From contig JAVLKG010000004.1 in assembly GCA_032128875.1 (NCBI GenBank), positions 96,001 through 160,000 on the forward strand: a stretch of DNA of 64,000 nucleotides. Reading direction: 5' to 3'. The notes below the pieces were generated by a model, which was given only the letters and a program-made list of their open reading frames with translations, did not search any database and was not told where the DNA came from. Source of the DNA: Candidatus Melainabacteria bacterium 17Bon1m. Lineage in GTDB: Bacteria > Cyanobacteriota > Vampirovibrionia > Obscuribacterales > Obscuribacteraceae. A program made the translations under genes and the position numbers. The stretch's first letter is position 1, and every line of letters starts with the position of its first letter. Positions 1 to 12,867 of the stretch are shown here, piece by piece.

Positions 1-1227
1 ATTGTTCAGCGAAACAGGCAGTTTCATCAATGCCGGTTCGATGAAATTGCGCCGCAGCGGACCCGGAACAGTCCGCCAGAGCGCTGCCATCCGGTGCGCC
101 TGGTAGGTCGGGTAACCGCCAAAAAGCTCGTCTCCGCCCTCTCCAGCCAACGCTACGGTGACATCTTGCTTTGTCATTTTCGAAAGGAAGAAAGTTGGGA
201 CTATGGAAGCGTCGGCGATTGGCTCGTCCAGATAATTCCAAAGCTCGGTCATGGTCTCGAAAGCAAGGTCAGGCTTGAAAGTGACGACTTTGTGGTCGCT
301 TACTATATGCTTAGACACTGCCAAAGCGTGCTCGGACTCATCGAAAGAGCGGTCGGCAAAGCCGATAGAAAACGTCTTGATCGGCCGCCCGGTAATTTTT
401 GTGGCGATTGCAGCAATGCCCGAAGAATCGATACCGCCCGAAAGGAAGATACCCAGCGGGACATCGGAGATCAGGCGCAATTCGATGGAGCGCTTGAGCA
501 GTTCCATTAAGCGCTCGGAAGCTTCTTGCTCATTGAGCTTTGTCGGCTCAGGCTTCGGATTCCAATAGTTTTTAATTGAAACTTGTCCGTTTTCAACAAT
601 CAGATAATGCGCCGGCATCAGCTTGTTGATGCCTTTAAAAATTGAACTCGGAGCCGGCACGTATTCCAGTGCCAGGTACTTCATAAGGGCTGCGGGATTG
701 AGTTCACGGCTCACCTTGGGGTGTGCGAGCAAGCCTTTGATTTCCGAGCCGAATACAAACTGTCCGTCGAAAATGCCCCAGTGAAGAGGTTTTTCGCCCA
801 TTCTGTCTCTAGCAATGAAGAGTCTTTGCTTGGCTCTGTCCCAAATTGCAAAGGCGAACATGCCCTCCAGGTGCTGCAAGCAGTCCACTCCGTACTCTTC
901 GTACAAATGGACAATCGACTCTGTATCACTGGAAGTTTTGAACTTGTGACCCTTGGCCAGCAAGTGTTCGCGGATTTCTTTGTAGTTGTAGATTTCGCCA
1001 TTAAAGACAATCCAGGCGCTTTCGTCTGAGTTTGGAATTGGCTGCTGGCCCGTCGAGAGGTCGATGATGCTCAATCTGGTCATGCCAAGAGCAGCAGAAT
1101 CAATGACTATCGAGCCTTGTTCGTCTGGTCCTCGATGGAATATCGAGTGGCACATGGCGCCGATTTGCTCTTTCGAGCCATCCAGCTTTTCGTTGTTGAG
1201 GTTGAGATAGCCTACGATTCCGCACAC
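1..1227 (-). CDS. asnB: Asparagine synthase (glutamine-hydrolysing), runs off the window edge
   Basis: Not in the ORF track because there is no stop in the window. Manual translation from GTG at 1227 gives MCGIVGYLN...HRGPD...RLSIIDL...FNGEIYN...SDTE...GMFAFAIWD...FLSGGIDSS...GEGGDELFGGY. An in-frame ATG lies at 1284 (see findings). Confidence 0.93.
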   Translation of the reverse strand, partial: MCGIVGYLNLNNEKLDGSKEQIGAMCHSIFHRGPDEQGSIVIDSAALGMTRLSIIDLSTGQQPIPNSDESAWIVFNGEIYNYKEIREHLLAKGHKFKTSSDTESIVHLYEEYGVDCLQHLEGMFAFAIWDRAKQRLFIARDRMGEKPLHWGIFDGQFVFGSEIKGLLAHPKVSRELNPAALMKYLALEYVPAPSSIFKGINKLMPAHYLIVENGQVSIKNYWNPKPEPTKLNEQEASERLMELLKRSIELRLISDVPLGIFLSGGIDSSGIAAIATKITGRPIKTFSIGFADRSFDESEHALAVSKHIVSDHKVVTFKPDLAFETMTELWNYLDEPIADASIVPTFFLSKMTKQDVTVALAGEGGDELFGGYPTYQAHRMAALWRTVPGPLRRNFIEPALMKLPVSLNN

Positions 1228-1538
1228 GTTTGTTTCCGCCCGTTTGTCTGGATTTGCCGTTAGTGGCTGTTTTGCCACCGCCATATTGTCCCTTGTGAGA
1301 GCAAATATGGCATTAGACGGGCTTTCAGCAACAAGTTTCGTTTATTAAATGTCTGAAAGCGCCAGAGTACTAGCATTTGCGAGAATGTGCCTATATCGGG
1401 TACATATGTATTATCGGCGCCGAGATTTAATCTTTTCTGGGCTCGAAATTTTGAACTTTTTTGTCACTGGATACGTATTCAAAGATATGACCCCCCTGAC
1501 GGGCATGTATCCCTTCCACATCTGGAGCCAGTCAGTTG

Positions 1539-2606
1539 ATGAAACGAAATCTCTTAAGCCTGGCTGCGTTGGCGCTTCTAGCGATACCGCAAGCTAATGC
1601 TGTGCCCTTGATTAAGGGCGATGAGGCCTCTTACCGAGTAAGAGAGCTCTCTACAGGAATGAATTGGTACACCAATCTGCCGATGGCGCTTCAAGAAGGC
1701 GCACGTACCGGCAAGCTTGTTGTTTGGATTCATATGTTGGGCAAAATCGACGGCGCCACTTGAAGTGCCGGAAATTCGCTGAGAGCCGTGTCGCTCTCGC
1801 AGGAACCAGCTTTCTCTTATTTGAAAGATAATTTTGTAGTCGGATACAAGGACATTACCGGTGCATCGTATGCAGGTGTGTCCGGGGTCCACATGCCCAC
1901 CGGCAATGCGGTGAGCACGACCAACGGTGCGGGTCCGCATAACTTGCAGACATTTGTTCTTGCACCTGATGGCACTGTTATGACTTGCCTGCCTGGCTAT
2001 TGGTCGCCACAGGATTTGGTCTCTGAGCTAAAACTCGGACAAGATATCTACAAAGTCTGGAATGACAGATATTTGTCGAAAGCTGAAAAGGACGCACGCT
2101 TCCGGCAGATGCAGCAAGATCATTTCCGCACCCATTCGCCTCAAGAGCAAAGAAGAAGCCGCATGCAAGGTTTTGACATGAAGTACGAAGCGAAAAATCG
2201 TTTGCAGACTTCAGATTGCATTCTTGATTCTCGAATGGCCAGCGTTGTTCTGCAAAAGGGCATGAAAGCACCACCGGGCGCATTCAAGACAACAGATCAA
2301 ATCATGCACGACCGCATGAGCCAAAGACCGTTTTTAAACTACCAAAATTTTGATGTGGTTGCATACACGGACTACGGCAGACCCTTCTACAACAAGAATG
2401 AGGACCAGCGCACTGCCAGTGGTGAGGTCAATAAAGATCTCGCAAGAGCGCAGCCTCTTATGGGGAATGTCAATGAATTGCCCGGAGCTGCCAAACGAGC
2501 ACGCAGACAGCAACGGCAACAAATGGCCGGCTCAAGGATGATGAATCGCGCCGGCGGCTATCTTGCAAGAAGAGGAGTTCAGACTTTCGTGCGCGCAATG
2601 CGCTAG
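1539..2606 (+). CDS. Putative exported selenoprotein, SelN-like thioredoxin fold, in-frame UGA at codon 75 (355 aa if read through)
   Basis: ORFs 1536-1763 and 1788-2606 share a frame, and the 8 codons between them are open (SAGNSLRA). Signal peptide MKRNLLSLAALALLAIPQANA. Motif LGKIDGAT*SAGNSLR. Hairpin directly downstream of the TGA. Confidence 0.75.
1764..1807 (+). promoter_or_regulatory. Candidate bacterial SECIS element
   Basis: GAGAGC(1781-86)/loop CGTGTC/GCTCTC(1793-98), extendable by CT/AG and TTC/GAA. The loop starts 23 nt after the UGA and has G at position 2, which fits the general bacterial SECIS geometry. Confidence 0.65.
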
Positions 2607-2613
2607 CTACACC

Positions 2614-2663
2614 GTAGGGTGGCATATATGCCGCCCTGTGCAGGGAGCCGCATGCGGCTCCCT
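2614..2663. repeat. REP doublet (REPIN-like)
   Basis: GTAG-GGTGGCATATATGCCGCCC followed by the perfect palindrome AGGGAGCCGCATGCGGCTCCCT. Near-identical units at 12814 and 30511. Confidence 0.85.
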
Positions 2664-2706
2664 TTCGCGTGCAACGAAATGCCGTCATTTGTTAGACTAT
2701 CTAGCT

Positions 2707-3288
2707 GTGAGCGTTCGTACGAAACTAACTAGAGATTTCTTTGCGCGGCCGACTGTTGAGGTGGCGCCGGAACTGCTCGGCATTACTTTGGTCAGGAAAA
2801 TGCCTGACGGAAGTGAAGTACGTGCGCCCATTGTTGAGGTCGAAGCATATACCGAAGACGACCCGGCCTGCCACGCTTATCGCGGGCTAACCGAACGGTG
2901 CAGAGTAATGTTTGGTCCTCCGGGATTTTCGTATGTTTACTTCATTTACGGCATGTATTTTTGCTTGAATGTTGTCACTGAGGTCGAAGGTACTCCCGGA
3001 GCAATTTTGATTAGAGCGCTGGGAGCCCCTGGTTGTGAGGGGCCGGGAAAGCTCTGCAGACAATGGGAAATAGACCGTTCTTTGAATGCGATTGATTTGC
3101 TTGATCCGAATTCTCCAATTTATTTAGAAGCCGGCACCAAATACAGTGCAAGACAAATTAGTGTTACTGAGCGCATTGGGCTTACCGTCGCGACAGAAAG
3201 GCTCTGGCGATTTTTTGTGACAGATCATCCCCACGTCTCTGGAAAGCGTAGTGGCACACGTTCGCGTAAATCGGTGGCGAAGCGATGA
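2707..3288 (+). CDS. mpg: DNA-3-methyladenine glycosylase (AAG/MPG family)
   Basis: FFARPTVEVAPELLG, IVEVEAY, DPACHAY, YVYFIYGMYFCLNVV, GPGKLC, RIG, LWRF. GTG start chosen because the longer ORF crosses the REP. Confidence 0.93.
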   Translation: MSVRTKLTRDFFARPTVEVAPELLGITLVRKMPDGSEVRAPIVEVEAYTEDDPACHAYRGLTERCRVMFGPPGFSYVYFIYGMYFCLNVVTEVEGTPGAILIRALGAPGCEGPGKLCRQWEIDRSLNAIDLLDPNSPIYLEAGTKYSARQISVTERIGLTVATERLWRFFVTDHPHVSGKRSGTRSRKSVAKR

Positions 3289-3710
3289 CAGCATTGCCAA
3301 CAACTAGTCTCCGCAAACCAGTGATTGCATGGGCCGCTGTTGCCGTCTGGATCATTGTGATTTTTCTTTTTTCGCATCAGGCCAATTCTGGCGCAATTAC
3401 TGAAACGTACCTGCATGATGCGAATGTTCCAATTCGCAAGCTTGCGCATCTTACAGAATATGCCGTTCTCTTCTGTCTGAGCCGTTTTGCTCTGTCACAA
3501 AGCGCTTTTTCTTCGACTTGGGGAAACACGCGCTTGAGCATTGGCGCTTACGTGTTTACGCTTGCCAATGCGCTATTTGATGAGTGGCATCAGTCGTTTG
3601 TACCAGGACGAAGTGCGACGCTGTCGGACGCCACCGTTGACATGTGCGGCGCAATGCTTGCGTGGGTTGCGATTTACATTCTTCTCAAAGTGAAGAGTTC
3701 TCGCCGCTAG
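3285..3710 (+). CDS. VanZ-family membrane protein
   Basis: RKLAHLTEYAVL, DEWHQSFVPGR, D...D in the last TM helix. ATGA overlap with mpg. Confidence 0.88.
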   Translation: MTALPTTSLRKPVIAWAAVAVWIIVIFLFSHQANSGAITETYLHDANVPIRKLAHLTEYAVLFCLSRFALSQSAFSSTWGNTRLSIGAYVFTLANALFDEWHQSFVPGRSATLSDATVDMCGAMLAWVAIYILLKVKSSRR

Positions 3711-12813: not shown

Positions 12814-12867
12814 GTAGGGGCGACATACATGCCGCCCTGAATATGGAGCCGCATGCGGCTCCCCTAC
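12814..12867. repeat. REP doublet (REPIN-like)
   Basis: GTAG-GGGCGACATACATGCCGCCC...GGAGCCGCATGCGGCTCCC-CTAC, with inverted GTAG feet. Confidence 0.88.

Follow-up and report, generated by a model that had tools for sequence, protein, structure and literature searches.

Selenoprotein N (SELENON) has a single selenocysteine (Sec) in a thioredoxin-type domain facing a non-cytoplasmic compartment, according to the available portions of the papers that describe it (PMC12839072; PMC8967691; PMC8584023; PMC1440920). The same portions report an SCUG motif, in which a Cys adjoins the Sec (PMC12839072; PMC8584023), place the Sec of the human protein at residue 462 with Arg466 as a site of pathogenic changes (PMC8967691), and describe in SEPN1 a conserved coding hairpin that lies less than 10 nucleotides (nt) past the UGA and aids read-through (PMC1440920; PMC8584023). 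Among bacteria, the VPGUxxT models (NF041382/NF041383) represent a thioredoxin-fold selenoprotein family of unknown function. Here we describe a gene at positions 1539-2606 (forward strand) of a 64,000-nt stretch of the genome of Candidatus Melainabacteria bacterium 17Bon1m (assembly GCA_032128875.1, contig JAVLKG010000004.1, positions 96,001 to 160,000; hereafter the window). We predict with high confidence that this is one gene for a periplasmic thioredoxin-fold selenoprotein in which an in-frame UGA is decoded as Sec. We favor this reading because the TGA column is conserved among homologues, one homologue has Cys in that column, a hairpin resembling a selenocysteine insertion sequence (SECIS) follows the UGA, the genome encodes Sec machinery, and the codons before and after the TGA are under equally strong purifying selection.

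The gene starts at ATG 1539 (there is also a TTG at 1536), and its N-terminal product begins MKRNLLSLAALALLAIPQANA. A signal-peptide open reading frame (ORF) ends at TGA 1761-1763, and the same frame is uninterrupted until TAG 2604-2606. The read-through protein has 355 amino acids (aa), and the region around residue 75 reads ...LGKIDGAT-U-SAGNSLRAVSLSQEPAFSYLKDNFVVGY. The coordinates and read-through sequence had been proposed in a prediction made from the DNA letters (the original prediction), and all were reproduced, as was the placement of GTG 1788-1790 inside the loop of a hairpin (1787-1792). The features of the locus are as follows.

1539-2606, + strand: whole predicted selenoprotein gene, 355 codons plus TAG, with UGA as codon 75 (from the reading frame, homologues that cross the TGA and the ratio of nonsynonymous to synonymous substitution rates, dN/dS).
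1539-1601, + strand: predicted signal peptide of the general secretory (Sec-pathway) type, with MKRN, a hydrophobic core and A-N-A, read by eye with no predictor; cleavage is probably after residue 21.
1761-1763, + strand: UGA, predicted to encode Sec (residue 75), from an invariant alignment column, 32 read-through frames and the contigs of sequencing runs.
1780-1799, + strand: SECIS-like hairpin 17 nt past the UGA, with stem 1780-1786/1793-1799 and loop CGUGUC at 1787-1792 (from RNAalifold, base pairing and a freeze at synonymous sites).
1632-2063, + strand: thioredoxin-fold domain (residues ~32-175), with predicted Sec75 at the N-end of the active-site helix (from an AlphaFold2 model, VIA-align and Foldseek).
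1986-1988, + strand: Cys150, a candidate resolving cysteine two residues before a conserved Pro in a C-L-P-G-Y-W loop; nearly invariant in alignment A1.
2064-2528, + strand: conserved helical C-terminal domain (residues 176-330), with a high predicted local distance difference test score (pLDDT) in the full model and invariant His, Asp and Glu.
2529-2603, + strand: basic C-terminal tail of low confidence (residues 331-355, pLDDT <50), ending in a conserved R-G-x-x-x-F-x-R.

Homologues were sought in 61 genomes of relatives using the read-through protein. Matches were found in 34 genomes, including 30 of 36 from the window's own taxonomic family and 3 of 3 from another family in its order; none came from the remaining families of the class (0 of 21). 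A hand count of the 106 match rows gave a single in-frame TGA in 101, and three of these 101 additionally have a TAG. The five stop-free rows span only query residues 83-296, 1-58, 219-293, 235-295 and 231-295, and none of them reaches residue 75. From 34 fetched loci a script recovered 32 read-through frames with the TGA at one motif column, and a wider pattern added locus L042 and 17 further loci (one of which is a second fetch of the L042 locus). The column of residue 75 in alignment A1 (23 sequences) is invariant, being TGA in 22 sequences and Cys in one, and the flanks are conserved on both sides; the TGA column is likewise invariant in alignment A3. The Cys is found in a public protein of 344 aa (P0045) that is continuous through the column (...IDGPA-C-SAVHS). 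A second TGA serves as the terminal stop in some family members. The original prediction had anticipated continuous homologues with TGA or Cys in this column and conservation on both flanks, and the match rows and P0045 have this form. The TGA-interrupted pattern is not due to chance.

Public gene callers read such loci as two units. The public relatives number 380 proteins (E <= 1e-3, among 6356 candidates), and 119 of the best 120 begin right after the TGA (VSLSQE or MSLSQE), with only P0045 spanning the column. These records would fit two genes or a pseudogene, with a short secreted peptide ending at the TGA and an unrelated 272-aa protein starting at GTG 1788. We consider this explanation highly improbable. 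The GTG that gives the apparent VSLSQE/MSLSQE start is that of the conserved hairpin loop, and the public records are cut at the UGA. In those 101 rows the halves always adjoin each other in a single frame, with exactly one TGA between them; halves encoded separately or in another frame, which the original prediction had named as evidence that would count against it, were not seen. P0045 joins the halves through a Cys, and the halves jointly form one thioredoxin fold that the TGA would break between a strand and the active-site helix. Selection also argues against two genes. In pairwise comparisons of nine orthologues (36 pairs), codons 22-74 have a dN/dS of 0.060 and codons 76-330 one of 0.051, and both halves are under equal purifying selection. 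The signal-peptide pattern recurs in orthologues, with a higher dN/dS (0.295) there and pLDDT <50 for residues 1-20.

An assembly or sequencing error in the record was also considered and is refuted, its probability being negligible. Contigs from four runs, which belong to three studies, agree in the TGA and the letters around it, a check that the original prediction had proposed, and the TGA recurs in independent assemblies of 33 other genomes. No point in support of an error was found.

A bacterial SECIS, for example that of E. coli fdhF, is an in-frame hairpin soon after the UGA that has G and U in its apical loop and is read by SelB. The hairpin at 1780-1799 (GAGAGC-CGUGUC-GCUCUC) is similarly in frame and shortly 3' of the UGA, with G and U in its loop, and we take its UGA-to-loop distance of 23 nt and its loop G-U to fit bacterial SECIS models. 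It differs in its short stem (6-7 base pairs) and hexaloop, in a sequence that is nearly invariant across phyla in the wider superfamily described below, and in the lack of an Rfam model.

Support for the hairpin comes from alignment A2, which covers the region from the TGA to +66 in 27 sequences (22 from the window's family and five from a distant paralogous family). RNAalifold, unaided, predicts a single helix that pairs columns 20-26 with 33-39 and encloses a six-base loop. Standard pairs occupy 95.8% of the 189 helix cells, compared with 33.9-60.3% after the 3' strand was slid by 1-3 columns, and the observed value was reached by 0 of 500 shuffles. A compensatory change from G-C to A-U occurs at one pair in four sequences. 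We also analyzed synonymous sites in 71 loci of the paralogous family, which derive from several phyla and have locus GC contents of 41-74%. The codons beneath the hairpin are nearly fixed (Ala GCG in 70/71, Arg at U+7 AGA/AGG in 69/71, Thr ACC in 60/60, Val GTG in 70/70 and Phe TTC in 68/71). Codon choice outside the hairpin is free, with AGA/AGG used for Arg at U+4 in 9/71 loci and for 175 of 983 Arg codons (18%) in the next 200 codons. In the 7.55-Mb genome, exactly three sites show the pattern of TGA, spacer and hairpin, one for each paralogue.

The genome (93% complete) encodes a tRNA-Sec (67.5 bits; ARAGORN anticodon TCA), SelA (430 bits), a SelB frame of 671 aa (contig C3) and SelD (370 bits). 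All of the machinery for which the original prediction suggested a search (selA, selB, selC and selD) is therefore present. SelA scores above the cut-off in 29 of 33 relatives with the family and in 3 of 27 without it, which we regard as supporting evidence and not as a statistical test because related genomes are not independent. A Sec-type formate dehydrogenase was not found in the window's genome (the best match scores 82 bits, the cut-off being 814, and is free of in-frame stops), and SelD has zero in-frame stops. The three paralogues may therefore count among the chief users of this genome's Sec machinery.

Read-through of the UGA need not insert Sec: a suppressor tRNA, near-cognate decoding or a changed genetic code could in principle yield Trp, Cys or Gly. 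A representative of the paralogous family, P0159, does read C-W at the Sec position, and Sec decoding at this locus is a prediction. We nevertheless consider such non-Sec read-through very unlikely. TGA terminates 901 of the 3546 stop-to-stop frames of at least 300 aa in the window's genome, and the code is therefore not reassigned. The Sec machinery is complete and co-occurs with the family, the hairpin lies at SECIS distance and is conserved at synonymous sites, and the sense replacements of the TGA are nearly always Cys (P0045 and the C-C and S-C forms described below).

The fold of the predicted selenoprotein was modelled with AlphaFold2 from alignment A1 (pLDDT 86.9, predicted template modelling score 0.81). 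In its thioredoxin fold, residue 75 follows strand 60-66 and precedes helix 76-85. In thioredoxins, the attacking Cys of the CxxC motif occupies the N-end of the active-site helix. VIA-align, run over 48,161 chains, gave 3f9u_B as the best match (Z 10.0, root-mean-square deviation 2.5, 110 aligned residues), followed by 2lst (8.8), 3ira (8.2), 4fyb (8.2), AGR3 (3ph9, 7.8), DsbH (7.7), the gamma domain of DsbD (1vrs, 7.3) and the UAS domain of FAF1 (2ec4, 7.2). The top Foldseek row is AGR3 (3ph9_B, E 9e-3), and all leading structural rows are thioredoxin folds. The original prediction had placed the UGA mid-way through a thioredoxin-like fold, at the start of the active-site helix, and both the model and its top structural matches agree.

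The closest structural neighbors (AGR2/AGR3, DsbD gamma, DsbH/DUF255 and UAS) are exported or luminal redox or redox-like domains. A dithiol motif of the CxxC or UxxC type is absent, as the motif is U-S-A-G with Gly at +3; the single-Cys and Thioredoxin_7-type folds have C-x-x-C or C-x-x-S where the window protein has U-x-x-G. Other differences from Thioredoxin_7-type folds are that no Pfam model reaches its threshold on the protein and that it has an additional helical domain of ~155 residues. This C-terminal domain (pLDDT 79.1 when modelled alone) has no match among solved structures (best VIA-align Z 3.4, best Foldseek E 2.1). Columns 101 and 150 are readable in 104 public members of the family, of which 80 have Cys at both, 17 only at 101, 7 only at 150 and none at neither. 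The window protein has the Cys150-only pattern. This distribution would fit a need for one resolving cysteine.

The recoding mechanism is classical. By analogy with the established SelB/SECIS mechanism, the hairpin would act as a bacterial SECIS and recruit SelB with Sec-tRNA(Sec). The putative signal peptide would then export the 355-aa precursor, and the mature protein would fold as a thioredoxin-type domain with Sec75 in the position of the attacking Cys of CxxC, as in the model. Sec75 may attack a disulfide, sulfenate or peroxide-type substrate. Cys150, next to the loop with the conserved Pro, could then resolve the selenenylsulfide so formed, a role that Cys101 could take in relatives. 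Specificity for a substrate or partner probably comes from the helical C-terminal domain, in which His, Asp and Glu residues are invariant. The C-terminal tail (2529-2603) may serve for anchoring, for sorting or for binding a partner. Its R-G-x-x-x-F-x-R motif, often followed by G-x-R-A, is seen again in distant family members.

The window's family belongs to the order Obscuribacterales (Melainabacteria) and has 2-6 copies per genome. Strong matches to it are confined to that order, and in an even sample of 300 genomes from the phylum they were found just in the window's genome, with weak, stop-free matches in 13 others. Two paralogues were identified in the same genome. The closer one, C11 (named after its contig; locus L035, 613-1905, + strand, near contig position 87755), has 431 aa, 45% identity and the motif T-U-S-A-A, with an extra C-terminal region of ~100 residues that gives a weak TPR-like signal (NCBIfam E 0.052). 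The more distant one, C6 (likewise named after its contig; locus L036, 296-1636, + strand, near contig position 273341), is a read-through protein of 447 aa with ...LDDRF-C-U-TNARLARTVLFS, and has the same hairpin with one compensatory change. Profiles of the window's family and of the Cys-Sec (C-U) family to which C6 belongs align with an hhalign probability of 98.3% (E 2.3e-14, 154 columns). In this alignment the Sec columns are shifted by one residue, whereas the DNA alignment has equal TGA-to-hairpin spacing in both families. Because this spacing is identical, we aligned the two Sec residues with each other and interpret the additional Cys as an insertion.

A search with the C-U profile returned 2605 cluster representatives at E <= 1e-3 (1079 at <= 1e-30). 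Most of the best 150 of these begin right after the Sec column, and all 150 are close relatives. The full-length matches are mostly Cys forms, with S-C in 129 of 135 relatives that have the pattern away from the N-terminus. From species-representative genomes, 80 loci were fetched and 74 resolved, of which 71 have TGA and three have C-C. The 71 TGA loci comprise 52 C-U, 17 T-U, one S-U and one A-U form. The resolved loci are labelled Melainabacteria/Obscuribacterales, Planctomycetota (Gemmataceae, Pirellulaceae and others), Myxococcota and a few others. The Cys forms, from Pirellulales, Verrucomicrobiae, Blastocatellia and Anatilimnocola, are named just "hypothetical protein" or "thioredoxin family protein". 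Clusters in the protein atlas are unnamed, with Acidobacteriota and Planctomycetota as the commonest phyla, and cluster look-ups gave "hypothetical protein" and no informative name. Word-based searches likewise gave just rows that were unnamed or called "hypothetical" or "thioredoxin family protein". A far larger thioredoxin-like superfamily, with Sec and Cys forms, includes the window's family as one branch.

Known families do not account for these proteins in the databases searched. Pfam gave no family at the gathering score for the window protein, and its relatives score 15-21 bits where 27 are needed. Pfam and NCBIfam (release 20) gave nothing above cut-off for the window protein, the two paralogues and seven Cys-form relatives. 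PDB sequence searches with two profiles and one protein returned chance-level rows only, with nothing related to SELENON. VPGUxxT is the sole selenoprotein model with any signal, which comes from a paralogue and is far below the cut-off (19.4 bits against 350, E 5e-4). It does not match the window protein, which has T-U-S-A-G in place of VPGU-x-x-T.

The available part of a 2026 survey of prokaryotic selenoproteins includes a Table 1 of 119 families and subfamilies, in which no row has this motif (PMC13188914). Our scans covered the rows of that table that have Pfam, TIGR or NF models, and the few rows defined by cd or PTHR models have other motifs. As examples of families common with eukaryotes, the same part names SelD, GPX, deiodinase-like, SelW-like and MsrA proteins; selenoprotein N is neither among these examples nor in the table (PMC13188914). 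A single annotated Sec protein in one Melainabacteria proteome is reported in the available portion of a further paper (PMC9529120). Our literature search on selenoproteins of Melainabacteria and Obscuribacter, and on bacterial homologues of SELENON, found no relevant described family. The predicted thioredoxin-fold selenoproteins appear to form an undescribed family; selenoproteins have seldom been reported from this lineage.

The comparison with SELENON refers to the portions of the literature cited at the outset. Like SELENON, the window protein places its predicted Sec within a thioredoxin fold and has a putative export signal, and its gene has a hairpin that begins 17 nt past the UGA. It differs in the motif (T-U-S-A-G, not SCUG), in Asn79 at U+4 instead of Arg, and in its length of 355 aa with no EF-hand or membrane anchor (no Pfam match, and a signal peptide that by eye is cleavable). 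The hairpins also differ, as that of the window gene is of the bacterial SECIS type and that of SELENON is an accessory element beside a SECIS of the 3' untranslated region. The C6 paralogue, with its Cys-Sec pair (F-C-U-T) and Arg at U+4, recalls SCUG and Arg466, and within these partial descriptions it fits SELENON better than the window protein does. Arg is present at U+4 in 71/71 loci of the paralogous family.

We also compared both proteins by eye, ungapped, with the unverified SELENON string of the original prediction. Of its 38 positions, the window protein agrees at 9 and the C-U paralogue at 11; the 11 take in G-x-L-D-D-x-x-C-U and the Arg residues at +4 and +7. In alignment A3, seven of the 11 (G, L, D, C, U and both Arg) fall in columns that do not vary. 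This resemblance is a lead, not a test. We suggest, tentatively and short of preferring the idea, that the Sec-bearing thioredoxin domain in SELENON may have its prokaryotic counterpart, and perhaps its origin, in the bacterial superfamily (T-U, Cys-Sec and S-C forms).

Several points weigh against the prediction of a recoded, exported selenoprotein. Sec incorporation and the full-length product are deduced from the nucleotide sequence, and we infer the export, the resolving cysteine and the chemistry. The hairpin is small; alone, its 71-nt stretch is no stabler than shuffles (z = -0.33), and an Rfam scan around the UGA gave zero family matches. Covariation is thin, with just one pair altered on both sides, because the stem is almost invariant. 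SelA was not detected in 4 of the 33 family-bearing genomes; the completeness of these four is 64-93%, and SelA is present in the remaining 8 of 12 relatives searched in their genus. The locus is contained in three runs labelled as RNA-Seq, and the two examined (X2 and X3) give no sign of transcription: the locus is on contigs of 31-34 kb with flat depth, and such contigs are not evidence of transcription. A conserved neighbor that would point to the substrate was not found in the 1.5-kb flanks that were compared. The core claim of the original prediction, an exported selenoprotein of ~355 aa that has a thioredoxin-like fold and whose T-U-S-A-G motif has no Cys next to the Sec, is still well supported by the TGA column, the Cys homologue, the hairpin, the Sec machinery and the selection on both halves.

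The gene is flanked by ORFs at window 1-1284 (- strand) and 2563-3710 (+ strand). Upstream, on the other strand, is an asparagine synthase-like ORF, and downstream are a 3-methyladenine glycosylase-like ORF and a small membrane-protein ORF (all named from their translations by eye). Within the 1.5-kb flanks, no partner gene is conserved across distant members, and neighbors are common to within-genus orthologues only. An antisense ORF of 120 aa (1578-1940, - strand) overlaps the gene, and similar antisense frames recur in relatives; we take these to be shadows of the conserved coding strand. A scan for promoters and terminators found no promoter-like site and no other informative signal near the gene. 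A perfect 20-base palindrome, GGGAGCCGCATGCGGCTCCC, lies at window 2643-2662, 37 nt past the stop codon, and its 16-base core occurs also at 12846. It is a dispersed repeat, with 40 exact copies in the genome and 59 of the core, and contigs of several runs branch there. The terminator scan made no call at this palindrome.

The predicted family would be a new selenoprotein family within a multi-phylum superfamily, with no entry in Pfam, NCBIfam release 20 or Table 1 of PMC13188914. The public records contain a systematic annotation error, as 119 of the best 120 listed are truncated at the UGA. If the link to SELENON is true, the Sec position would have been inherited, and the "selenocysteine redefinition" hairpin of SELENON would be a remnant of a bacterial in-frame SECIS. 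A human disease protein of poorly understood chemistry would then gain bacterial relatives that are tractable at the bench. In the Melainabacteria, a non-photosynthetic sister group of the Cyanobacteria, the family may be a main cause of the retention of Sec machinery, because no Sec-type formate dehydrogenase was found in the window's genome and its SelD is stop-free.

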